Source: a virus
Taxonomy: Duplodnaviria; Heunggongvirae; Uroviricota; Caudoviricetes
Length of the DNA stretch: 64,000 nucleotides
Strand: one strand, 5' to 3'
Virus record (IMG/VR): IMGVR_UViG_3300046786_000370
Coordinates: 15,927-79,926 of that record
A program made the position numbers and the translations under genes. Positions 3,857 to 46,972 of this stretch are shown here, piece by piece. Numbering within the stretch: the first letter of the stretch is position 1; each line of letters starts with the position of its first letter. Below the pieces are notes generated by a model. The model saw nothing but the letters and a program-made list of their open reading frames with translations, made no database searches and was not told the DNA's origin.

Positions 3857-4447
3857 TTACATGAATAAGAATACACCCTGAGCACTTAACAACATGCCAA
3901 GGCCAGCAACAAAAAAGCTACCCCAGAACATTGGCATACTGACAGCAAGAATACTTGCTGATAATACAACAATACTCAATTGATACATTGTACTAGCATA
4001 ACCAATCCACGGGCTACGTTTCTTGGCTTCGTCACGTTCAGCTTCTAATGCTCGTGCCTTTTCCATTAGCTCTTTCTTACCTTCGCCAGTCTTAGGATCA
4101 CTTTCGTAACGGTCAATCTTGGCCTGTAGCTTTTCAGCTTTGGCTGTGTCTTTACGATAAACAGCATCATCTAAACTTTGTTCAGCTAGAGTTTGTTTAA
4201 TACTCTTAGCTTGATAGAATGCCCAAATATTGTTTGAGGAAATAGTGTTGTTTAAGGTCTTACTGCTTAAAGTACCACCATACCAGCTGTTAACTGCTAG
4301 TAATAAAGCGAATACAGAAATGACCATACCTGCTTTGTCTTTTAGTTTAGCTTCGCGTTCGCTACGTGAACCGACTGGAGGCTTAGGTGCGTCCGGATCC
4401 TTTGGTTGTTTGTTAATTAAATTTAATACTGAATCTATCAATGCCAT
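3857..4447 (-). CDS. membrane protein with coiled coil (DUF4337-like)
   Basis: N- and C-terminal TM segments flanking a Lys/Glu-rich coiled coil. Confidence 0.35.
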   Translation of the reverse strand: MALIDSVLNLINKQPKDPDAPKPPVGSRSEREAKLKDKAGMVISVFALLLAVNSWYGGTLSSKTLNNTISSNNIWAFYQAKSIKQTLAEQSLDDAVYRKDTAKAEKLQAKIDRYESDPKTGEGKKELMEKARALEAERDEAKKRSPWIGYASTMYQLSIVVLSASILAVSMPMFWGSFFVAGLGMLLSAQGVFLFM

Positions 4448-6479: not shown

Positions 6480-7691
6480 TTAATGGAACTGATCTGCTTC
6501 TGTTGAATTGGCCAATGCTGTAGTCGATGTCGCACCAACTGCTGTGGCAATAGCATCAAAGTAAGGAACACCTGCTTCACGTTGGTGACGTACAGTTGTA
6601 AACTTACTATTGTTTCCTGTAGCGAATTCTAATTGTTGTAAATCAGAATACGCACCCATACCTTCTTCAGCATAGGCCTTAGCAAGACTAAATGTAGCTA
6701 GGTTAACTGAGTGGAATCCTGCAAGTGTAATGAACTGGAACTTATATCCCATCTTACCTAATTCAATTTGGAACTGTACACATTCTTCACGTGTCAAATG
6801 CTTACGCCAATTAAAACTAGGACTACAGTTATAAGCAAGCATTTGTTCAGGAAACTCAGCGTGGATGGCTTCAGCAAACTTGCGAGCTTGTGCCAAATCA
6901 GGCGTCGAAGTTTCAAACCATAAGAGATCAGCGTAAGGGGCATAAGCAAGACCTCGCCCAATACAAGCATCAATGCCGTTTTTAAATTTGTAAAAACCTT
7001 CTTCAGTACGTTCATTGATAATAAACTCCTTATCCAATGGATCGTGGTCGCTGGTAATCAGCGTGGCGGCTTCGGCATCAGTGCGAGCCATAATAACTGT
7101 GTCAACGCCTGCTACATCTGCGGCTAAACGTGCGGCATTTAATGTACGAATCATTTGACTTGTTGGTACAAGTACTTTACCACCTAAGTGACCGCATTTC
7201 TTTTCACTTGCCAATTGATCCTCAAAGTGTACGCCCGCGGCACCTGCTTCAATCATTGCTGTCATAAGTTCGTATGCGTTCAATGCGCCACCAAAGCCAG
7301 CTTCGGCATCAGCAACAATAGGAAGGAAGTAATCAGTTTCAACTTTACCTTCCAGGAATTCAATTTGATCAGCACGACGGAAAGCATTATTAATACCTTT
7401 AACAACTTTTGGCACACTATCAACAGGATACAAACTTTGATCCGGATATGTTGTGTTAGCAGTATTGTTAGCGGCAGCAACTTGCCAGCCGCTCAAGTAA
7501 ATTGCTTTCAATCCTGCTTTAGCATGTTGTACTGCCATTTGGCCATTGTAAGCACCTAGCGTGTTTACATAGTCTTCATTGGCTAATAGTTCACGCAACT
7601 TGGCGGCGCCACGTTTAGCTAACGTGTGTTCGATTAATACGCTACCTTGTAGTCGGCGTACATCTTCTTGTGTGTAGTTTCTCTTTTTCAT
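6480..7691 (-). CDS. aceA: isocitrate lyase
   Basis: KKCGHLGGK catalytic signature; 403 aa. Confidence 0.8.
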
Positions 7692-15372: not shown

Positions 15373-16040
15373 TTATGTGCTATCCTTATACTAACGCCTA
15401 ATTTAGATTTACTCATCATTCTTCCTGTAGAATGTATGTGCTGACTGTCAAATACTATAGCTGATCCCGGAGTCCAGGAATATGCTGTTCCGCTCATGCT
15501 ATAAAAATAGTCACGTTCGAAGTGTTGACTGTCTATGTGTTGCCAAATTTCCTGGGGTAATTCAGTATTTGTACCACCTTGGAAAAATTCCCCATCACAG
15601 GGCCTTGAATTTGTTTTCTTATTACTGTAGAAATCACCGTCAATTTCAAAATTGCCTAGCCATGTAATATTCTTACCCTGCCAACGTTGATCAAATACAA
15701 TAAACTTTTGATCCTCTCTGGGCTCAAATCTTTGAATTGGTATAACAATATTCAACCATGCTTTATCTTCTATAGCGTCACAATGTGGAAAGTAACTGTG
15801 ACTGTGCTTATAAAAGTTGTCGCCTACAATTTTGTAGGGTTCATTTATGTTCAATTTGCGTTCAATCAAATTTGTAGCAAATTCATTGAATTCAATTTCG
15901 TCAAATGGCAACAATACTTTGTCCATGCCATGGCTGAATATGTGGTCATGACTGAGAAATATTTGCTTTAAATATTCTAATTCTGAATCAGTGACAATAT
16001 TTTCAACTAATTTGTGCATGTGTTTATTTAAGCCACGCAT
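15369..16040 (-). CDS. hypothetical protein (possible oxygenase)
   Basis: PHCDAIED...QHIHSTG looks like a loose HxD...H motif. Confidence 0.35.
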   Translation of the reverse strand: MRGLNKHMHKLVENIVTDSELEYLKQIFLSHDHIFSHGMDKVLLPFDEIEFNEFATNLIERKLNINEPYKIVGDNFYKHSHSYFPHCDAIEDKAWLNIVIPIQRFEPREDQKFIVFDQRWQGKNITWLGNFEIDGDFYSNKKTNSRPCDGEFFQGGTNTELPQEIWQHIDSQHFERDYFYSMSGTAYSWTPGSAIVFDSQHIHSTGRMMSKSKLGVSIRIAHK

Positions 16041-17043
16041 ACAATTTTTCAGCCTGGCCCTGTGTATGCCATTTATTGTCCCAATCTACGGCCCATTTCT
16101 TATATAAATCTATGCTTTTTAATTTGTCTGTGGTTAAATTAAAATATGGAAGATTTTTATCCCAATATTGTTCTGCGATATGCCTGGGAAATAGATTCAA
16201 TCCTGCGTGTTTCGGATATACAATTGGAAATGTATGTACAGGCAATTTCCAAAATTCCACAGTCTTCGGATAATCAGCTATAGTCCACGGCGTTACGCTG
16301 TAACTTATACTGGCATTACTGTTGTTTTTAATTATATCAACAGAGTCTAATAGTTCATCCCAGCTTGCGTCACGTCGAAACCATTCATAAGTGTCTTTGT
16401 AGCCTTCTATGCTAATGCTACATTGTACACTGGCCCAGCCTTTCCACAGATCCAATCTGGGTTTGATCAATCCATTTGTAATATAAACTAATTTACAATG
16501 ACTTCTATCGTAGTTACTTAAATGTTCTAATATTTTATAATGTGCGGGATCTAGAAATGGCTCGCCACCTGTGAATTTAATGTGATCCAAATTAGGCAAC
16601 AATTCGACTAATTCGGCCAGGAATTCATCTGTAACATCAAACGCATTTATAACATGTGGACTAATTCCCAACAATTTGCGCCAGCCACTGCTACGCTCGG
16701 GTCCACAATGAGCACAAGTCAATTGACATTTGTTGCTCATTTTAAATTGTATTGCACGAATTTCTCTTTGTTCACTGATAAATTTAGTGCCTGTACGCAG
16801 ACTCTGTTGTCCGTGTTCTTCTACTTGTCTACATCTATAACAAGCATATTCAGTGTCTGCGGTATAGCCTGTAGAATTTAAGTTTTCTCTCAGTGTTAAT
16901 AACTTAGGATGATTAAATGCTGTTTTAATTCCATTTTGAATTGGACTGATTCTGGCAGCATTGTCTGTTTCGCCACAGCAGGGTCTTGTCCAACCATCTG
17001 TTTCGATGCTAACCATGTTTTCTACCCAAGCACATTTTTTCAT
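16024..17043 (-). CDS. radical SAM enzyme
   Basis: CQLTCAHC (Cx3Cx2C) plus FTGGEPFL; Cys-rich N-terminal extension. Confidence 0.65.
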   Translation of the reverse strand: MKKCAWVENMVSIETDGWTRPCCGETDNAARISPIQNGIKTAFNHPKLLTLRENLNSTGYTADTEYACYRCRQVEEHGQQSLRTGTKFISEQREIRAIQFKMSNKCQLTCAHCGPERSSGWRKLLGISPHVINAFDVTDEFLAELVELLPNLDHIKFTGGEPFLDPAHYKILEHLSNYDRSHCKLVYITNGLIKPRLDLWKGWASVQCSISIEGYKDTYEWFRRDASWDELLDSVDIIKNNSNASISYSVTPWTIADYPKTVEFWKLPVHTFPIVYPKHAGLNLFPRHIAEQYWDKNLPYFNLTTDKLKSIDLYKKWAVDWDNKWHTQGQAEKLYAWLK

Positions 17044-22311: not shown

Positions 22312-22597
22312 ATCTTATTGAAACACACTTAAACCGTTCTTCAGTGCTATGGACACTATCTCCTAATCCAAGTAGGCGTAGGGTATGTGCTTCAATAAAA
22401 TGTCTAGCTACTCTCACCACAAGAGCCCTAGACCGAGCTGTTACTCTGTCCACGTGCTTTTCCATTTAGACGGGCAACGTCCCCGCCTTTGTGATTTCTC
22501 AAGTCGCTTTAAACAAGCCTTGCGGTAGATCCAATGCACCGTGCCGTTAAGGTGTAGCAATTACCTAACTCTGTTACGTTGAGTTAACACGGGGTTT

Positions 22598-30139: not shown

Positions 30140-31538
30140 TACTTTTTCCTTCTATCAAATGCCATGGGTCATTATAAAATCTAAAACTCAAACTTACTCT
30201 AGGTTTGTCTGTGTTGTTTACTACGCTGTGAACTTTTTTAACATTTAAAATAACCGGCTTATCTAACACATAATTAGCCTGTGGATCAACCCCGCTGACC
30301 AAATATCTATAATAAGGTATATATGTTCCCTTAGTCATTAATTTAATAGACGTTAGACCTTCTTCATCCCACATTTCAGTTGTTACTTGATCAGTATTTG
30401 TAACAGGAAAGTTGATAGCTAAAATCTCGTCGCCGTCATCTAGATGAGGACTTTGCCTTGTGTTTGGCGGCGTAGATATATAAGCAACCTTAATAGGATT
30501 AATTTTATTTGCTGTACACCACTTTTTAAAACTAGGCAATGCTTCTAAAACTTTACGACAGTCGATTATTTTAAAATAACTATCTGGTACAGGATTGTCT
30601 ATGTAAAACTGATCTATTTCTTTTTTGATATCTTCAAAGGCACCGATACCTAAATAATTATAGTAAAATTTTTCGGCACGCCAGTACGGTGCTAGGCCTA
30701 TCCTTCTGTTATGTTTGTCATAAGCAAACAGAATACTCTTTGTCGGAGTTAGATTATACTTTAAACAAATGTTTTCTAATTTGTTTCCGTAAGTATCCCA
30801 CCAATAAGTCAGTGGCATTTTTTCTAATAGCTTAGTAGCTAAATTAACCCCAGATAAATTCACGTAACCTATCCAATTAAGAACCTCTAACTCTGGTATT
30901 TCTTTTTTAGAATATAAAAGACTAATTCTATTGTAAGGTATAGACAGTGATTTACTAAAACTTACGCTAATAGTTTCGAAGGCAGATACATCAATTTGAT
31001 CAGGTTCAGTTAAACCTAAATAAGCGCAATCTAAATGCACTCTCTTAGGATTACATTGTAATGCAAAATCTAGTTCGGTTCTGTCGCCTTGACTATATCC
31101 GGGCCAGGAAACTACCATATCGTCGACATTTTTAGGCTCTTCTAAAATCTGACATTGTTTGCCAGACTTTTCATGCCAGTGAGAATAATAACTATAATCT
31201 CCTTTTTTAAATGCAATGTTACCAACACGTCTGAACAATTCGTCAAGACTGTGCGAATTGCCATTCATAACATATACATACGGGAAATTTCTTTTGGTAA
31301 GATTAAAGAGCCAGTTGCTGGCCCATTGTGTTGCTAATTTTTTTAATTTTGCTGTTGTATCCCATCGTTCTTTCCAATGGAATTCTCTATCCCATGGGCT
31401 ATACATTTCGATAGTATTAGCCTCACGGATAATGTCAGAGACAAAATCATCTCTGATGGGCTTTATAAGTGTTTTATAAAACTCATCTATATGATTTAAA
31501 TCTCTGTGTTCGTCTGCTTTTAAAACGTCATTAGACAT
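30132..31538 (-). CDS. large hypothetical protein
   Basis: 468 aa ORF sitting between the oxygenase triplet and ACP. Confidence 0.45.
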   Translation of the reverse strand: MSNDVLKADEHRDLNHIDEFYKTLIKPIRDDFVSDIIREANTIEMYSPWDREFHWKERWDTTAKLKKLATQWASNWLFNLTKRNFPYVYVMNGNSHSLDELFRRVGNIAFKKGDYSYYSHWHEKSGKQCQILEEPKNVDDMVVSWPGYSQGDRTELDFALQCNPKRVHLDCAYLGLTEPDQIDVSAFETISVSFSKSLSIPYNRISLLYSKKEIPELEVLNWIGYVNLSGVNLATKLLEKMPLTYWWDTYGNKLENICLKYNLTPTKSILFAYDKHNRRIGLAPYWRAEKFYYNYLGIGAFEDIKKEIDQFYIDNPVPDSYFKIIDCRKVLEALPSFKKWCTANKINPIKVAYISTPPNTRQSPHLDDGDEILAINFPVTNTDQVTTEMWDEEGLTSIKLMTKGTYIPYYRYLVSGVDPQANYVLDKPVILNVKKVHSVVNNTDKPRVSLSFRFYNDPWHLIEGKSNG

Positions 31539-31758
31539 TTAAATGATCCAGCAAATGGCCAACAGTTCTGATGTCATTTTCTGGGTCTGGAATTTCTACG
31601 TTATATCGTTTTTCAAATTCCATTTGAAGTTCAACAATATCTAAACTGTCTAATCCAAGATCTTGGATTGGTGTGTCTCTGTTAATTTCTGGAAGTTGCT
31701 TTTTAAATAAATCATCGAAGGCCGATTTTAAAAAGTCAAATTTTTCTTGGTCTGTCAT
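31531..31758 (-). CDS. acyl carrier protein
   Basis: LGLDSLDIVEL phosphopantetheine-attachment motif; 75 aa acidic protein. Confidence 0.7.
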   Translation of the reverse strand: MTDQEKFDFLKSAFDDLFKKQLPEINRDTPIQDLGLDSLDIVELQMEFEKRYNVEIPDPENDIRTVGHLLDHLNV

Positions 31759-31804
31759 GTTGTCCTCATTAAAAAATTATAAAGTATTTAAGAAATTGTG
31801 CCAC

Positions 31805-33235
31805 TTATTTTAATTGGTCGAAGATGTAATTAGAAATAAATGCATGATGTTTGATGCCCATTTCTTTCCAATTTAAATCTACTACCTTTGTGTTTCTTAC
31901 TTCGTCGTAGTCATAGCCTAAATTAGCATAGTTAGGTATGTACCATGTCATAGGCTTTACCATGTTTATTCGCCTGTCGTCATAGTTTAATTTTTGAGCA
32001 ATCGTGATGGCATCTTTAAAATTGTAAGTGCTGTGTTCCCAATAGTCTGTGTCTGCGGGATTAGGAAATGTTATTCCATAGTCAGAGGCATGTTTTTCAA
32101 ACTCTGTGCCTTTGCCGTTTTTATTTAAAAACAATTGAAGGAAGAACCAATTGTCTGCTACTTTGTTTTCTAACAACCATTCCTGTGTTTCTAACAATGA
32201 TTGTTCTGTTTCATAAGGCAAACCTGCGATAAAACTACAAGTAATAGATACGTCGTCTTTCCAAATATCTTTTAGTTTTAATAAAAAGTCTTTGCCGTAC
32301 TTGCCATTCCAGCCTTTGCCTAGACAAGAACTTGCTTCTGGATGAAAACTTTCTATGCCAAAATATGTTGATTTAAGTCCACTTAATTTTAACAGTTCAA
32401 TGGTATGCGGATTAACGCCGATGACATCTAATCTATTATAACCCAGCCATTCAAATTTAAACGGCATTTTTTCTGCAATTTTAGCCAGCCTTTCTATTTT
32501 AGATGAGCTTTCATTTACAGTATCATCCATGATTTGATATCGAGTAGTGCCAAACATTTCATAGTTACGCAGTAATTCATCTTCGATATGAGACTCATCT
32601 CTTAGATAAGTATCTACCTTTTTTCCCACTAATGGATAGCTACAAAATTTACATCTAAACTGACAGCCACGTGCAAGTTCTATGGGCAACGATTCTCCTG
32701 GCTGAATACTAGCATCATCATAAAAACATGCTGTTAAATTTTTAATATCAAAAGGTGAATATGCTGGTGTATTTTCAGTCTTTTCATTCATGTACTTTAA
32801 AAGACTGTCTTCGGCAAAGCTAACAAATTTTCTCCATTTAAATCTGTCTTCTTTACCCAAGTGGCCTACACCTGTATGGCCTCCTAATAACCAATCTAAC
32901 TTTGGATGTTTGATTTGTAGAATAAATCTAGCTGATTGTACCCATTGCGGTTCATAATACTGATCTTGATTTAAGTCGTAGTAATCTTTATGTTGCCTAT
33001 TTGAGTAAGCAGTAGGCTTCCAAAAAGTTGAACTAACGCCAATGGCAATAGTTTCAGGACCAATATGTTTTTGTGTAATTTCTATTAGTCTTCGAGTGGG
33101 TATAGCATGACAAAAATCAATAACCTTTGCGGTATATCCGTGCTGTCGTAGCCAATGAGCTAGAATGTGCGGTCCGATTGGTCTAGTTACGTTTACTGGT
33201 TCGTTAAAACTATTCCATAAAATTATTTGTGCCAT
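31805..33235 (-). CDS. B12-binding-domain radical SAM enzyme
   Basis: CQFRCKFC (Cx3Cx2C) at residue ~190 after an N-terminal B12-binding-like domain. Confidence 0.65.
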   Translation of the reverse strand: MAQIILWNSFNEPVNVTRPIGPHILAHWLRQHGYTAKVIDFCHAIPTRRLIEITQKHIGPETIAIGVSSTFWKPTAYSNRQHKDYYDLNQDQYYEPQWVQSARFILQIKHPKLDWLLGGHTGVGHLGKEDRFKWRKFVSFAEDSLLKYMNEKTENTPAYSPFDIKNLTACFYDDASIQPGESLPIELARGCQFRCKFCSYPLVGKKVDTYLRDESHIEDELLRNYEMFGTTRYQIMDDTVNESSSKIERLAKIAEKMPFKFEWLGYNRLDVIGVNPHTIELLKLSGLKSTYFGIESFHPEASSCLGKGWNGKYGKDFLLKLKDIWKDDVSITCSFIAGLPYETEQSLLETQEWLLENKVADNWFFLQLFLNKNGKGTEFEKHASDYGITFPNPADTDYWEHSTYNFKDAITIAQKLNYDDRRINMVKPMTWYIPNYANLGYDYDEVRNTKVVDLNWKEMGIKHHAFISNYIFDQLK

Positions 33236-33284
33236 GCGTGTCTATTGTAAAGTATAGTCTATTTATATCATAAGATATTAAAAA

Positions 33285-33378
33285 TTTATATTAAAGCACA
33301 CTAATGTCCTGTAGCTTTAACAGGCCTCAGACTTTTTCAAATCTCGCAGTCACACGTCAATGTGCTTTAATATAAATG
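33285..33378. repeat. inverted repeat TTTATATTAAAGCACAC ... GTGTGCTTTAATATAAA
   Basis: About 17-nt arms separated by ~55 nt; the core TTAAAGCAC also appears in the inverted repeat at 46645-46690. Confidence 0.55.
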
Positions 33379-33379
33379 C

Positions 33380-33600
33380 TCTGCATCCCCCGGCGGTAAT
33401 TATAGAGTATCAAGATACGATGCTATCGTACCCATCACACACTCCTTCCACCCGCTCCCCGCAGGGACCGTTCTCGCATTGCCAGCGGCCTTTCGGTTTA
33501 AAGACTACCACCCGTAGTTGTCACGCTACTTCTCATCGTGTGGGTCACACTATCCGGAGACACCCGGAACGTTCTTTCGCATAAATATTTTATGCGTCCA
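33380..33600. other. GC-rich ORF-poor island (candidate structured RNA)
   Basis: Locally GC-rich compared with the AT-rich flanks; several hairpins; contains CCGCAG and GTTTAAAGACTAC, which weakly resemble group-I intron Q/R elements. Confidence 0.3.
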
Positions 33601-33741
33601 TCTAATATAGATAACTTCTTAATGTTGTATAAAAACAATAACAAAGAGCCTTATCGTATAGATAGTAGATTCAAACCTGACGAGTTATTACACTTGCCTA
33701 AAAAAGAATTCATACCAGATGAATTAATTCATCCAAATACT

Positions 33742-33816
33742 TGGAAGAGCCACGGGGAATCGAACCCCGCTTCTCAGGATGAAAACCTGATGTCCTAACC
33801 GATAGACGATGGCTCC
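33742..33816 (-). tRNA. tRNA-Glu (TTC)
   Basis: Loop TTTTCAT, T-arm GCGGGGTTCGATTCCCCG. Confidence 0.65.
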
Positions 33817-33897
33817 ATATAGAAACACACTAGAGTCCCTCGGGCTATACTACCCAAAGTTAACATATCCCTATGACAACTACAATGTGTTTTTATA

Positions 33898-33973
33898 TGG
33901 TGGAGGAGACAGGGATCGAACCTGCGACCTATTGCTTGCAAAGCAACCGCTCTCCCAACTGAGCTACACCCCC
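33898..33973 (-). tRNA. tRNA-Ala (TGC)
   Basis: G3:U70 pair, loop TTTGCAA, D-arm GCTCAGTTGGGAGAGC. Confidence 0.65.
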
Positions 33974-34058: not shown

Positions 34059-34435
34059 ATATTGAATTTGTAAGTAGTATCACCATCGTTATTGATACCA
34101 TTCACCCAAGTATATAAAGCCGGCTGGGACTCGGTACGTCACTTGGGATACTAGTCCAGTTAGCAACCAATCTGCGGAGATCTTCCGATCTCCCGGGAGT
34201 TGAACCCGTCCCCTTTTACTATTTCGGTAGTTCGAACTTACCTAGATAGCGTGACATTCTCTTGCTGACACTTACAAAAATGGCGGGAGCCTAACTATCT
34301 TGTTGTTAGCAAGCCTCGTTAGATTGTCTCGAATAGGCAAGTTTATACACCCATCAATCATACTATAGTGTCATCACAGTTAACCCCACTGTGACTAGAT
34401 TGACAGGGACTCAAACCTATCGTCTATCCCATAAT

Positions 34436-34692: not shown

Positions 34693-34915
34693 GGTAACCA
34701 TATTAAAACACACTAAGGGAACTAGAACAAATACATAGCACCGTCTGCTGGTTCTTTGTTTTCGTCATTACTGCCTAACTGCCCGTCACGTTCCACTGCA
34801 CGGCTTACACCGTCGTCTATACGCTTCATGTAACTCTATGCGAAGCCAGTCCGTCAACTGGTTATACTTCCATAGAGTACCTAACGGATTAAGTAACCCT
34901 TAATATATTTTAATA

Positions 34916-35919: not shown

Positions 35920-36591
35920 TTAACTCCAAAGTAGGTCAAAGTTTCCTTGTAGCACTTTTTTTGTACTGGATACTTTGTCGGTTATGTGATCTTGTACCCT
36001 ATCATCTTGAAAGCGGTACGTTCTTATTTTATCTCCTCGCATCCCGGAACCAACTTGTTCTCGTCTATTTGAGGCTATACTGTTATTATACTCTGCGCTG
36101 ACTATGTTGTCAACTTTATTGGTTATTGTAGACATTGCTTCGTTATAACTGTTTTCTCTACTGCGGCATTGTGCTGTAGCAACTATACCAGAAGGTATGT
36201 GTGTTATGCGGCAACTGTTTTGATGTTTATTGCGATGTTGTCCGCCAGCACCAGTTCCGCTGTACCATTCTATTTTAAGATCCCGTTCAGCGATAGTTGT
36301 TTTAACTATTTCGGGATCTACAATGGCCACGGTTACTGTGCTGGTATGTACTCTGCCTTTACGTTCAGTGGGAGGAACACGTTGTATTCTATGTCCGCCA
36401 CTTTCGTTATACAAGCCTGATAAATCAGCACCCTCGACTAATATATGTACTTCGCCAAGATACTCACCTATTAGGCGGGTAGTTCAGCCAAGTTTACCAG
36501 CGAATTTTGTATATGCTTGAGCAAGGTCTTTGACAAACAACTTGCTGTCTTCGCCGCCTTCTGCGGCTCTAATTTCTATAACTCGTTTCAT
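35920..36591 (-). CDS. class-I peptide chain release factor homolog (RF1-type PPT motif, GGQ; lacks domain 1) with one in-frame TGA
   Basis: Hand translation: MKRVIEIRAAEGGEDSKLFVKDLAQAYTKFAGKLG-TGA-TTRLIGE...ESGGHRIQRVPPTERKGRVHTS...GTGAGGQHRNKHQNSCRITHIPSGIV...RTYRFQDDRVQDH; a single frame from 36591 to 35920 broken only by TGA at 36486..36484. Confidence 0.7.
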
Positions 36592-39179: not shown

Positions 39180-40361
39180 ATGATTAATAAGAAACTAGGG
39201 TACTATACTGTAGGCGAATTCGAATTTGATTCAAAGATACAGGCCTGCTTATTTGCTAATAAAAACAATCAAGAAGTTTCTTGGCACTTTAACGAAAACG
39301 TTTTTAAAAACTATCCGTGGTCCAAAGAGCCTAGTGAATCATTGGATCAACTCTACGATCGTCGAACTAGACAACTTAGAGAAGAATACGATTATATCAT
39401 TATCAGCTATAGTGGCGGCGCTGATAGTCATAATATTGTAGAAAGCTTTATACGTCAAGGTTTACACATCGACGAGCTTATAATCAATACCATGGAAAAA
39501 GGCAGTAGCAAATTTACTGTTGTTGATCCTAACATAAAGAATCCAGAAAATGCGGCCGCAGAGCATCAACTACAAACAATACCAAGACTTAAAGAAATAC
39601 AAAATCGTATTCCAAAAACTAAAATAACTATTTTAGACCTGACGGATCACCTGTTTGATAGTTGGCTTAATGTTGGCGATGCCAGTTGGGTTATGGATAA
39701 GAGAGAAGGCTTGAATCCACTAAATGTAACCAGATTTAACTACATGCATTTCAGTGATGTAAGAAAACAATTTGACAAAGACAAAAAGATTGCGCTAATA
39801 CTAGGCGTCGAAAAGCCCAGAACATTTATTCATTCTAATAATAAGTTTTATATACGATTCACTGATAGAGCAACAAACATCATTACAATAGCCGAACACA
39901 TAAAAGAATACCCAAACGCTGTTGTTGAGTATTTTTATTGGAGTCCCGATAGCTGTGATATTTTATGTAAACAAGCTCATGTAATTAAACGTTGGCTGGA
40001 AGCCTTTCCGGAGAATCAGCCAATGTGGTTTCATAAAAATATGACTGCTGAATCTTTTAGATTAACGCACGAACGAATACTAAGAAATCTCATGTATACA
40101 ACGTGGGATCCTACATGGTGGCAAGCAGACAAAGCGACCAAAGACTGGTACAGTGAATTCGACTCTTGGTTTATCAAAGGATATGCGGGTACTAAACAAC
40201 ATAGTATTTGGTTAGAGGGTATCAACTACATAAGAGATAATGCCAGTAACTTTGTTAACAATAGTCACGGTTACGATGATGGACTCAATGTATTTGCTTA
40301 TAACTTTCCTGTAGCAGAAATGAATCCGCCAATCAACGTCGACAAGTTGTTAAACAATTAA
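39180..40361 (+). CDS. PP-loop ATP pyrophosphatase family protein
   Basis: IISYSGGADS (SGGxDS) motif; 393 aa. Confidence 0.6.
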   Translation: MINKKLGYYTVGEFEFDSKIQACLFANKNNQEVSWHFNENVFKNYPWSKEPSESLDQLYDRRTRQLREEYDYIIISYSGGADSHNIVESFIRQGLHIDELIINTMEKGSSKFTVVDPNIKNPENAAAEHQLQTIPRLKEIQNRIPKTKITILDLTDHLFDSWLNVGDASWVMDKREGLNPLNVTRFNYMHFSDVRKQFDKDKKIALILGVEKPRTFIHSNNKFYIRFTDRATNIITIAEHIKEYPNAVVEYFYWSPDSCDILCKQAHVIKRWLEAFPENQPMWFHKNMTAESFRLTHERILRNLMYTTWDPTWWQADKATKDWYSEFDSWFIKGYAGTKQHSIWLEGINYIRDNASNFVNNSHGYDDGLNVFAYNFPVAEMNPPINVDKLLNN

Positions 40362-41290
40362 ATTTTATATTTCTCTGCTCTGAGATCGTTTGGACATGGG
40401 CAATACTTAAATGGACATAGTATATCTTTTTTATCTAAGATAAAATTATTGATACGTCCCAATGATTTTGCCTTACATAAGCCTGCGCTAACTTCGCCAT
40501 TAAATCTAACTACCAAGCTTTGACTGGTTACCTTACAACGCCAGCCTTCAAATTCATTCCAATTATTAATAGTAATTTTACCTAGAGATAATTCTTCTAT
40601 AGAACCATCGTCGAAATAGACCATTGAGTTAACAAAGTTATCAGAACTAGTTGGTGCACCCATGTGAGTTTTGATCCACGTAGACTGTTCGTCTGTGTAT
40701 ATATAATTCTTTTTTGTATCTGTACCTATATAATTTAAAACCTTGGGCATTACAACACCACGAAGACTTGGAGTTATATTGTTATACAATTCTAAAACTG
40801 TGTCCCAGTTAGCAGGGTCGCAACTAAGGTTAAACAGAATAGAAGTGCCCGAATCAACTATAAGCTTTGATACTGCGTTTACTTTGTCTATTTTTGTAAA
40901 CTCTGGATGTAAGGATATTGTTACGTTATCTAAAAAAGGTAACGCTTCTTCCCACCATTCTTCACTTCTAGATCCGTTTGTTGTTACACCTATATAAACT
41001 TTTTCTGAGTGCATGTATTTTATAATGTCTAGAAAATTAGGATGTAACGTTGGCTCACCACCACCAAATTGAAGATTTATATGTGTTCCTTCTTCGGCCA
41101 ATGATTTTAATGTGTTCATAAAGACTGTAATGTCTTCATAGGATGGAAAGCCGGGTACTTTACCAGTGGCAAATTTTCCATTATGTAAAAAATCCGGACA
41201 GTAATTACATTTAAAATTACAAAAATCCGTAAGCATCCAATATACGTTAACAGTTGGTTTCTTAGGTATTATTTTAATAGGCTGTTTCAT
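40358..41290 (-). CDS. radical SAM enzyme with a Cys-rich (SPASM/twitch-like) C-terminal region
   Basis: CNFKCNYC plus GGGEPTL; C-terminal CKAKS...CPFKYCPCP; start trimmed to avoid tRNA-Phe. Confidence 0.6.
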   Translation of the reverse strand: MKQPIKIIPKKPTVNVYWMLTDFCNFKCNYCPDFLHNGKFATGKVPGFPSYEDITVFMNTLKSLAEEGTHINLQFGGGEPTLHPNFLDIIKYMHSEKVYIGVTTNGSRSEEWWEEALPFLDNVTISLHPEFTKIDKVNAVSKLIVDSGTSILFNLSCDPANWDTVLELYNNITPSLRGVVMPKVLNYIGTDTKKNYIYTDEQSTWIKTHMGAPTSSDNFVNSMVYFDDGSIEELSLGKITINNWNEFEGWRCKVTSQSLVVRFNGEVSAGLCKAKSLGRINNFILDKKDILCPFKYCPCPNDLRAEKYKI

Positions 41291-41305
41291 TCTATTATTT
41301 ATAAG

Positions 41306-41380
41306 TGGTGCCACAGACTGGACTCGAACCAGTAACACAAGAATTTTCAGTCCTCTGCTCTACCATTGGAGCTACTGTGG
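41306..41380 (-). tRNA. tRNA-Phe (GAA)
   Basis: Loop CTGAAAA, D-arm GCTCCAATGGTAGAGC. Confidence 0.65.
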
Positions 41381-46403: not shown

Positions 46404-46490
46404 TGGTGGAGACGACTGGAGTCGAACCAGTAGTGCCTTTCGGGCGGCGGATTTACAGTCCACTGGGGTTACCAATTTTCCTACATCTCC
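46404..46490 (-). tRNA. tRNA-Tyr (GTA), type II
   Basis: 87 nt; loop CTGTAAA; long variable arm GCCCGAAAGGC. Confidence 0.6.
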
Positions 46491-46494
46491 AATT

Positions 46495-46586
46495 TGGTAC
46501 CCCCGGCGGGAATCGAACCCACATGAACCAATTATCTGTTGCTTACGGGATATAAATCCGCCGTTTTACCGTTAAACTACAGGGGC
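46495..46586 (-). tRNA. atypical 92-nt tRNA-like gene (anticodon loop TTTATAT, anticodon TAT?)
   Basis: Good acceptor, D-arm and T-arm, but a 22-nt extra region without a clean variable stem. Confidence 0.35.
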
Positions 46587-46644
46587 ATATTTGTAAACAC
46601 ACTGTCTGCGACATTTCAGTCCATGCCAGCTCAATGTGTGTATT

Positions 46645-46690
46645 AAAGCACTCTAGGGGTCTGTGTTCTAGATTGCTCTAGACTAGAGTG
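46645..46690. repeat. inverted repeat GTATTAAAGCACTCTAG ... CTAGAGTGCTTTAATAC
   Basis: 17-nt arms; shares the TTAAAGCAC core with the inverted repeat at 33285. Confidence 0.5.
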
Positions 46691-46804
46691 CTTTAATACG
46701 AACTAATTTTTCCTCCCACACAAGGGATTCCATCCTAGTCGCCGCCCGTTTGCTCCATGTTTTAAGTGCGGAGCCAGGACCTCGTTTCCTGCTATTCACA
46801 CTTT

Positions 46805-46972
46805 GCGATCATCGATGTTTGTGAAGGAACATCTCCCGCTTTGATAAAGCTAAGTGCATTTCTTCAGCACGTTTTAACTTATTAAGAATCAGTTGTTTAG
46901 TCTGATCCTGAGTTAAAGTATTCTGTCGAAGCCACTCTACTTCTTTTAATTTTTTAATATCTGTCTCTGTCA
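46805..46972 (-). CDS. hypothetical small protein (56 aa)
   Basis: ORF MTETDIKKLKEVEWLRQN... with AAGGAAT RBS; shorter than the ORF-track cutoff. Confidence 0.35.

Follow-up and report, generated by a model that had tools for sequence, protein, structure and literature searches.

Location of the non-coding region and its strand

The window analyzed here is the whole 64,000-nucleotide (nt) stretch, positions 15,927 to 79,926, of IMG/VR record IMGVR_UViG_3300046786_000370, a virus of the Caudoviricetes. It carries 34 transfer RNA (tRNA) genes, all on the minus strand, as is nearly every open reading frame (ORF). A 500-nt gap (33236-33741) separates tRNA-Glu(UUC), its upstream neighbour on the transcribed strand, from a radical SAM ORF downstream, and only short ORFs of odd composition were found between them, in line with the first-pass annotation, which had seen no credible ORF there. 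The gap encodes two independent minus-strand RNA modules, a structured RNA of about 205 nt, here named RNA1, and an inverted repeat, here named element A.

The GC-rich island that had been placed at 33380-33600 was evident as 54-58% guanine plus cytosine (GC) in 100-nt windows at 33400-33550, against 23-39% in the flanks, and corresponds to RNA1. The inverted repeat, first described as a 17-nt repeat at 33285-33378, was real and longer, with 24-nt arms (33284-33307 and 33354-33377) that were 88% complementary. Its core, TTAAAGCAC, occurred five times compared to 0.94 expected (0/100 shuffles), and four of the five copies formed the arms of the 33285-33376 repeat and of a perfect 17-bp repeat at 46640-46656/46683-46699, confirming the reported sharing of this core with a repeat near 46645-46690. 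The fold energy of the region was -148 kcal/mol on the minus strand and -112 kcal/mol on the plus strand. Many of the conserved pairs of RNA1 were G-U as read on the minus strand; their plus-strand counterparts would be A-C, which fixes the minus strand for RNA1.

The viral loci fetched for comparison with the window are designated L001, L002 and so on. Orthologues of the radical SAM protein formed a graded series of 93-52% identity in a protein search, and their contigs supplied the relatives used for comparison; tblastn with the same protein against the GenBank phages returned no match. L001, a distant radical SAM relative without tRNAs, was uninformative for the region. Exact look-ups of a 28-mer in IMG/VR and of the radical SAM protein both came back empty.

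Homologues of RNA1 and database searches

By blastn, window positions 33576-33374 were 81% identical to L002:2553-2749 and 79% identical to L008:611-793, and in both loci RNA1 began right after tRNA-Tyr. A covariance model, R1, built from the alignment described below, detected exactly one copy in the window, at 33376-33580. The invariant-core pattern GGTAGTCTTTNAACCNAAAGGCC (21 bases) matched at least 119 IMG/VR viral contigs, and R1 detected members without the exact pattern in L137, L139, L140, and L142; some carriers were contigs from genomes above 300 kb. The core pattern had no hit among 185,579 species genomes of bacteria and archaea, and a second, independent pattern from the 3′ domain gave three chance matches in the same genomes, inside coding sequence and without a covariance model score. 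RNA1 thus represents a large family that has so far been seen only in phages and metagenomes. No match was obtained by blastn of the region against 50,697 GenBank phage records.

Rfam 15 identified only tRNAs across the whole window at the gathering threshold, and nothing on the island when 33100-33900 was scanned at E ≤ 10; RAGATH-6 was placed over the inverted repeat without significance (23.9 bits against a cutoff of 170). Six other RNA1 members scanned at E ≤ 1 gave only tRNAs and no match for the RNA1 family. Text searches across 8 million papers found neither the core strings nor an account of such an RNA in tRNA arrays. By every test applied here, RNA1 is a new RNA family. RNase P, tmRNA, 6S, SRP, hammerhead, and glmS, considered from motifs seen by eye (GAAAGG, GAUGAG, and ACC loops), were rejected, as none had an Rfam match and the topology was nested and not P4-like.

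Structure of RNA1

Helices were derived from compensatory changes in alignment A2, which comprised 59 RNA1 members less than 93% identical to one another. Standard pairs were formed in 96.2% of cells, compared to 81.3% in shuffled alignments and 37-47% when the pairing was slid; 25 of the 48 pairs changed on both sides, and the covariation score was 0.437 against 0.169 (0/500). From 5′ to 3′ in the window, RNA1 comprised the leader GAACGU, helices H1 and H2, the linker GAUGAGAA, H3, GGGUGGUA, H4, H5, and AGAACG, followed by the nested helices Pa, Pb, and Pc, an internal loop with a kink-turn (K-turn) signature, Pd, UAUAAUUA, and the tail GCAGAGCA (Table 1). The leader differed by subtype (AACGU vs ACCCG). 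The loops of H1 and H3 covaried in three classes, UGUC/GACA, AUCA/UGAU, and AACG/CGUU (permutation test, 0/1000). H4 was supported by a variant of the L137 type, in which a 71-nt insertion replaces this helix and a hairpin read inside the insertion, CAGUU[AAACCG]AACUG, keeps the AAACCG loop.

Within the 3′ domain, Pa (GUCCCU/GGGGAU) was 100% paired with five of six pairs compensatory, the middle pair of Pb (GCGG/CCGC) was found as C-G, U-A, and A-U with no exceptions, and Pc (GGAGUG/UACUCU) had three compensatory pairs, while Pd was a hairpin of variable length at the tip of the domain. The K-turn-like loop consisted of Pc, the bulge UGU and then G.A/A.G, and a GA/UGA signature was present in 43 of the 59 members. 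The register proposed for Pb by RNAalifold (182-186 with 285-289) was rejected because it breaks four sequences at U184/G287; the register adopted, 179-182 with 285-288, gave perfect C-G/U-A/A-U covariation. No pairing partner was found for the 3′ tail GCAGAGCA.

In favour of a small protein encoded by the island, for example by the 74-amino-acid plus-strand ORF at 33360-33584, an open antisense frame spanned the whole element in 24 of 87 homologues. This ORF is opposite to all neighbouring genes and of odd composition, the lengths of the 87 homologues vary out of frame (41/28/18 by length modulo 3), substitutions in the helices are pairwise compensatory, and insertions of 20-70 nt occur at hairpin tips, so that a protein-coding island is almost certainly not the explanation. 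Covariation strongly supports the earlier suggestion of a structured non-coding RNA for both the island and the inverted repeat. Both are conserved across related phages, so that the lack of conservation which the first-pass annotation had named as refuting was not observed; RNA1 is very probably a real structured RNA gene.

Element A and the other long stems

Element A formed a three-way junction (Table 1), and a pattern derived from the junction identified its family in at least 12 IMG/VR contigs, where it usually lay 3-14 nt before tRNA-Cys, -Leu, or -Ser. Its alignment had 91.6% of cells paired, compared to 82.7% when shuffled and at most 45% when slid, with 13 compensatory pairs among nine sequences. 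Hairpin 1 was wholly swapped between members with the pairing kept (AGAUUU[GAAA]AAGUCU vs UCACUG[GCAA]CAGUGA). In L002, positions 3873-3990 were homologous to window positions 33375-33250; they lay shortly before the radical SAM gene and over 1 kb away from RNA1, so that element A is a module separate from RNA1. The corresponding position before the radical SAM gene was occupied by tRNA-Cys and a canonical terminator in L007 and L008.

L003 and L002 encode an identical radical SAM protein. In L003, element A combined a 5′ arm of the L136 type with a 3′ arm of the L002 type, so that the outer stem cannot form, which suggests either recombination within element A or an assembly chimera.

In total, five long-stem elements (A-E) were found in the window, each of them on the minus strand within a tRNA island; B, D, and E had not been reported in the first-pass annotation. 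The stem sequence recurred in all five. The spacing between the arms ranged from 26 to ~180 nt. In the family of element C, the stem sequence GUAUUAAAGCA was conserved across many phages while the loop was variable, and this conservation of the stem sequence itself makes the TTAAAGCAC core shared between loci meaningful. A stem of at least 14 pairs began within 4 nt of RNA1 in 27 of 81 distinct 3′ flanks, compared to 4 of 122 random positions. For this reason, the arrays look like strings of closed units, either tRNAs or RNAs closed by long stems, with RNA1 as an open-ended unit between them.

The same evidence bears on a mobile origin, in which the island would be a remnant of a group I intron or homing element and the inverted repeat the end of a mobile element or a DNA site for a regulator. 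The modules are indeed shuffled among otherwise different phages at up to 95% identity, the mixed arms in L003 suggest recombination at these repeats, and the tRNA region of L004 has a GIY-YIG/NUMOD3-like ORF. Yet the strings CCGCAG and GTTTAAAGACTAC, once likened to group I intron Q/R elements, are read in antisense; the Rfam models of group I and group II introns gave no match at E ≤ 10; and the hairpins are nested, with no P3-P7 pseudoknot, split exons, interrupted host gene, or adjacent endonuclease gene in the window. Compensatory changes keep RNA pairing, including minus-strand-specific G-U pairs, and the arms of the repeat covary to keep pairing, with spacings unfit for a dimeric DNA-binding protein. 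Both the intron or mobile-element origin and the DNA-site role are accordingly very improbable.

Table 1. Positions of the RNA elements and their flanking genes in the window.
Feature	Coordinates	Strand	Description
Radical SAM ORF	31805-33235	-	PF04055; downstream flank of the region
Element A (the inverted repeat)	33285-33376	-	three-way junction; -33.7 kcal/mol, z -5.2
Element A outer stem	33357-33376 with 33285-33304	-	20 bp
Element A hairpin 1	33329-33344	-	GNRA loop
Element A hairpin 2	33308-33324	-	
RNA1	33376-33580	-	~205-nt structured non-coding RNA, the GC-rich island; R1 219 bits, E 4e-70
RNA1 3′ tail	33377-33384	-	GCAGAGCA, single-stranded; invariant columns in A2
RNA1 3′ domain	33385-33468	-	Pa, Pb, Pc, K-turn-like loop, Pd; nested helices, covariation
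RNA1 core	33469-33513	-	near-invariant, 46 nt: GGGUGGUA, H4, H5, AGAACG; columns invariant in 59 sequences
H4	within 33469-33513	-	GUCUUU[AAACCG]AAAGGC; never varies in A2
H5	within 33469-33513	-	CGC[UGGCAAU]GCG; C-G to U-A switch at columns 104/112
H3	33514-33529	-	GUAGC[GUGACA]ACUAC; 4/5 pairs change on both sides; loop partners H1 loop
H2	33538-33550	-	GUGUG[ACC]CACAC; invariant ACC-containing loop; 99.3% of cells paired; 2 pairs change on both sides
H1	33553-33568	-	UCCGG[GUGUCU]CCGGA; 5/5 pairs change on both sides; loop kisses H3 loop
Small hairpin	33576-33596	-	GCGCAUAAA/UUUAUGCG; just upstream of RNA1; read from sequence; not conserved elsewhere
tRNA-Glu(UUC)	33742-33816	-	upstream neighbour of the region on the transcribed strand
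Element B	33817-33897 (repeat spans 33815-33900)	-	fills tRNA-Ala/tRNA-Glu spacer; arms 77-88% identical to those of A; z -3.1
Element C	46640-46699	-	perfect 17-bp stem GUAUUAAAGCACUCUAG; z -9.6; terminal hairpin of RNA ~46632-46826
Element D	34701-34915	-	19-bp stem UAUUAAAAUAUAUUAAGGG / CCCUUAGUGUGUUUUAAUA closing ~180-nt RNA; z -4.0
Element E	22312-22402	-	18-bp stem UAUUGAAGCACAU...; three-way junction immediately 5′ of tRNA-Gly; z -4.9

Genomic habitat and transcription of RNA1

Transfer RNAs were present at 115 of 124 RNA1 loci. The start of RNA1 was within 15 nt of a same-strand tRNA in 67 of the 124, usually 0-5 nt past the encoded CCA, and the preceding tRNA was most often tRNA-Tyr (26 loci) or tRNA-Ser(GCU) (16 loci). 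Another tRNA followed within 60 nt downstream in 43 of the 124 loci. The tRNAs flanking RNA1 were intact. Loci without an upstream tRNA usually had a hairpin and an A/U-rich linker before RNA1, and a search there for a promoter of its own revealed only heterogeneous hairpins and A/U-rich linkers. No conserved neighbour protein was found within 4 kb on either side, the top clusters being spurious ORFs that overlapped tRNAs, and the downstream ORFs, where present, were unrelated to one another, which excludes both a leader or riboswitch tied to one gene and a dedicated protein partner encoded next to RNA1.

The position of the region directly 5′ of a same-strand radical SAM ORF, together with its high degree of structure, might have suggested a cis-acting leader, such as a cobalamin- or SAM-sensing riboswitch. 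The gene itself had been labeled B12-radical SAM, of which the radical SAM part was confirmed (PF04055), whereas no B12-binding domain was detected in ORF 31805-33235. Neither a cobalamin or SAM riboswitch nor any other riboswitch matched in Rfam at E ≤ 10. The context data already contradict this reading. At more than 120 loci, RNA1 is followed by a tRNA or by one of a set of unrelated ORFs; in L002, a tRNA and over 1 kb of sequence intervene between RNA1 and the orthologous radical SAM gene; and in the close relatives L004, L007, and L008 the radical SAM gene is not preceded by RNA1. A riboswitch at this position is thus extremely unlikely.

As an alternative, RNA1 might be a large ribozyme that cleaves itself at or close to its 5′ end and so releases the mature CCA end of the upstream tRNA. 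At most of the 67 tRNA-adjacent loci, a start 0-5 nt past the CCA leaves no room for exonucleolytic trimming, the 46-nt invariant core and the pseudoknotted tertiary contacts are typical of catalytic RNAs, and theta ribozymes provide a precedent at phage tRNA 3′ ends (PMC10879173). On the other hand, about half of the members, including the copy in the window, have no tRNA directly upstream, and the leader sequence varies between subtypes. The 5′ end of RNA1 consists of local hairpins and not of a double pseudoknot of the P1/P2 type found in hepatitis delta virus (HDV), no ribozyme model of Rfam matched in the window or in the six other members, and ~200 nt is far beyond the size needed for self-scission. 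Self-cleavage appears unlikely on balance but is a serious alternative to the main reading.

Upstream of RNA1 in the window, the stretch 33581-33741 had a blastn match in none of the compared loci. An AT-rich hairpin, GGAUGAAUUAAUUCAUCU, with a run of six U residues lay directly after tRNA-Glu (33700-33734, minus strand) and was conserved in no other locus, and a weak sigma-70-like site, with a score of only 9/12, was located at 33633-33604. Given this succession of hairpin, U6 run, and weak promoter-like site, RNA1 may be transcribed separately from the upstream tRNAs in this genome. The motif TATAAATA was rejected as a late promoter, since it was not enriched in the window (9 occurrences against 8.65 expected).

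Other conserved spacers and coding content

Several other spacers of the tRNA islands were conserved, all on the minus strand. The 377-nt spacer at 34059-34435, between tRNA-Asp and tRNA-Asn, was conserved in 34 fetched viral loci and apparently comprised two modules, one ~95% identical to L128, L123, L124, and L075 and the other 91% identical to L029; it contained the T-arm-like GGGACGGGUUCAACUCCCGGG, and neither ARAGORN nor Rfam made a call there. The spacer at 34701-34915, between tRNA-Leu and tRNA-Ser, was 70-83% identical in 20 loci, and this unit directly followed RNA1 in L034 and L057. The spacer at 22312-22596, between tRNA-Met and tRNA-Gly, was 84-87% identical in 31 loci, and its 3′ part was element E; a related unit followed RNA1 in L028, L040, L108, and L121. 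Upstream of tRNA-Ile(UAU), a conserved RNA of ~190 nt (~46632-46826) was found in at least 13 loci, with CAGGAAACGAGGUCCUG, AAACGGGCGGC, GGAUGRA, and the terminal long hairpin that is element C. The motif GCACUAGGUCCUGCAACC...CUCUCCC, which is not in the window, recurred upstream of element A or RNA1 (L003:92-120, L017, and L135-L142) and is possibly the 3′ terminus of a further RNA of these arrays.

Among the tRNAs themselves, tRNA-Ile(UAU) was 92 nt by ARAGORN, which is unusually long for tRNA-Ile (46495-46586 and 46404-46490, minus strand). Duplicated isoacceptors included Met (three copies) and Pro, Val, Ala, Asp, Glu, Thr, Ser, and Gly (two copies each). In the close relatives L002 and L008, tRNAs lay between RNA1 and the radical SAM gene (L002:3467-3540 and L008:1533-1606), one with a UUA anticodon, possibly an ochre suppressor, and one with a four-base anticodon, tttt, according to ARAGORN.

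Unusual auxiliary genes in the window encoded an isocitrate lyase, a sodium:dicarboxylate symporter, an acyl carrier protein, a release-factor-like protein, and at least three proteins of the radical SAM type (1298-2572, 6480-7691, 16024-17043, 31531-33235, 35920-36414, and 40358-41338). The acyl carrier protein gene adjoined the radical SAM gene, and in relatives both occurred in a syntenic block that also had fatty-acid desaturase genes. The release-factor-like protein was short, had an RF-1/PCRF domain, and was encoded within the tRNA region.

Proposed role of RNA1 and the long stems

Taken as a whole, the best explanation is that RNA1 is a stable RNA, co-processed with the tRNA array and with a tRNA-related role, and that the long stems are processing or stability elements; we give this a probability of roughly 0.55. 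RNA1 would be co-transcribed with the tRNAs of the array, excised by the tRNA machinery, with RNase P acting at the next tRNA and endonucleolytic 3′ processing at the previous one, and would accumulate as a stable trans-acting RNA. During infection it would most likely bind tRNA, or a host factor that handles or attacks tRNA. A tRNA-related target is suggested by the exclusive tRNA-array habitat, by the invariant UGG-containing single strands (GGGUGGUA and GUGGAA), in which UGGU is complementary to the tRNA 3′ ACCA, and by the 7-nt, T-loop-like loop of H5; the ACC-containing loops of H2 and H4 are also suggestive. Our confidence in a specific trans-acting role of this kind is moderate to low. 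The long AU-rich stems, of 17-24 bp, would most likely serve as processing sites of the RNase III type, as end-protecting stems, or as both, bracketing the modules that are not tRNAs, and modules may also be shuffled by recombination at these stems, of which the chimeric arms of L003 would be an example.

Several observations weigh against this explanation. The RNA1 of the window is atypical in that 166 nt separate it from tRNA-Glu, with an AT-rich stretch that is not conserved and a small hairpin in between, and 9 of the 124 loci show no tRNA in the DNA examined. We infer the transcription, the processing sites, and the stability of RNA1 from gene order throughout. The single-sequence fold of RNA1 is no more stable than those of shuffled sequences (z ~ -1), and the structural case therefore rests on comparative evidence. 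The K-turn signature is absent or replaced in about a quarter of the 59 members, the alignment of element A is a small sample of nine sequences, and the proposed binding of tRNA ends is suggested by invariant nucleotides, beyond the reach of covariation. Cleavage of the stems by RNase III is conjecture, and the stems might instead be stabilisers, leaky terminators, or recombination sites.

A more far-reaching proposal, which we put forward tentatively, is that RNA1 founds a new functional class of catalytic or tRNA-binding RNA with which phages that have large tRNA arrays would mature, protect, or regulate their tRNAs, either through cleavage at the 3′ ends of tRNAs or through the capture of NCCA ends or of host defence factors that target tRNA. 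The arrays would then hold at least five unknown conserved RNA modules, RNA1 being one of them, and tRNA islands would be ‘RNA operons’ bracketed by a shared long-stem processing signal.

Although it is carried by well over 100 distinct phage contigs, this RNA of 200 nt, whose core is invariant, whose kissing loops covary, and which has a K-turn-like bend, is absent from Rfam, from the phage isolates in GenBank, and from the 185,579 species genomes. Conservation of this degree is typical of ribozymes, riboswitch aptamers, and ribonucleoprotein scaffolds, and the conservation and complexity of RNA1, as read from its sequences, argue for an important function. The strict link between RNA1 and tRNA arrays is relevant to the question of why large phages encode tRNAs by the dozen, and of how such arrays are processed and protected from host defences directed at tRNA. 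The family is a concrete, synthesisable subject for functional and structural study, and the array ‘spacers’ hold several more conserved, undescribed RNAs.

Comparison with known systems

RNA1 could not be assigned to group I introns, HDV-like ribozymes, T-boxes, cobalamin or SAM riboswitches, GOLLD or ROOL, or the T4 RNAs rnaC and rnaD; with GOLLD, ROOL, and the T4 RNAs it has only the genomic habit in common. The Intron_gpI model, which represents the P3-P9 core, had no match on either strand, at the gathering threshold or at E ≤ 10, and unlike an intron RNA1 interrupts no gene, lying between complete tRNAs or between a tRNA and an ORF. Cobalamin and SAM riboswitches likewise had no Rfam match, and the genes downstream of RNA1 are unrelated across loci.

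The likeness to T-boxes lies in a K-turn at the base of a long hairpin and in the tRNA-related theme. The T-box consensus shares GGGUGGUA with RNA1, and the second GGGUGGA...ACCGCC resembles a split T-box sequence. However, the GG of this second GGGUGG pairs with the CC of ACCGCC in helix Pb, whereas UGGN of the T-box antiterminator sits in a bulge. RF00230 had no match in the window or in six other members, and a specifier loop, a terminator/antiterminator switch, a downstream aminoacyl-tRNA synthetase gene, and a position in a 5′ untranslated region are all absent in RNA1.

Theta ribozymes of gut phages, which are HDV-like, lie directly 3′ of tRNA genes, where they are proposed to act in the maturation of tRNA 3′ ends (Kienbeck et al., 2024; PMC10879173). 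RNA1 is similar in that its 5′ end lies at a tRNA 3′ end in 67 of 124 loci, although not in the window with its 166-nt gap. Theta ribozymes are minimal double pseudoknots, while RNA1 has ~205 nt and lacks the P1/P1.1/P2/P3/P4 arrangement, and the HDV-family models of Rfam matched neither the window nor the six other members.

GOLLD and ROOL are RNAs of complex fold and unknown function, roughly 600-800 nt in size, that often occur beside tRNA genes in phages or prophages, and GOLLD was discovered in metagenomes from lakes. A cryo-electron microscopy paper on these two RNAs mentions tRNA arrays (PMC12286853). RNA1 resembles them in residing in phage DNA beside tRNA genes (115 of 124 loci), all of its matches being viral or metagenome contigs, and differs in being ~200 nt with another helix plan and in having no Rfam match in the window or in six members.

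As for the long stems, RNase III stems such as those of ribosomal RNA operon spacers and the hairpins of the T7 early region are comparable to elements A-E, which are long, in some cases imperfect, and flank an RNA module in a presumed polycistronic transcript of stable RNAs. With 17-24 pairs, elements A-E have the size of RNase III substrates, about two turns of mostly regular double-stranded RNA, and are candidate substrates. They differ in that some enclose only 26-55 nt and in that the stem sequence of the element C family, UAUUAAAGCA, is itself conserved, which RNase III is not known to require.

In its genomic habit, RNA1 recalls the T4 species 1 and 2 RNAs (rnaC and rnaD), two small, stable RNAs without an assigned function that are encoded within the tRNA cluster of this phage. 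The two cases are analogous in position only, as the T4 RNAs are shorter (119 and 139 nt vs ~205 nt) and the best score of R1 in the T4 tRNA region, with filters off, was 4.4 bits. In T4, rnaD starts 1 nt after tRNA-Arg and rnaC 6 nt later, and both are presumably released by tRNA-processing enzymes; on this precedent, RNA1 would be released from its array in the same way.

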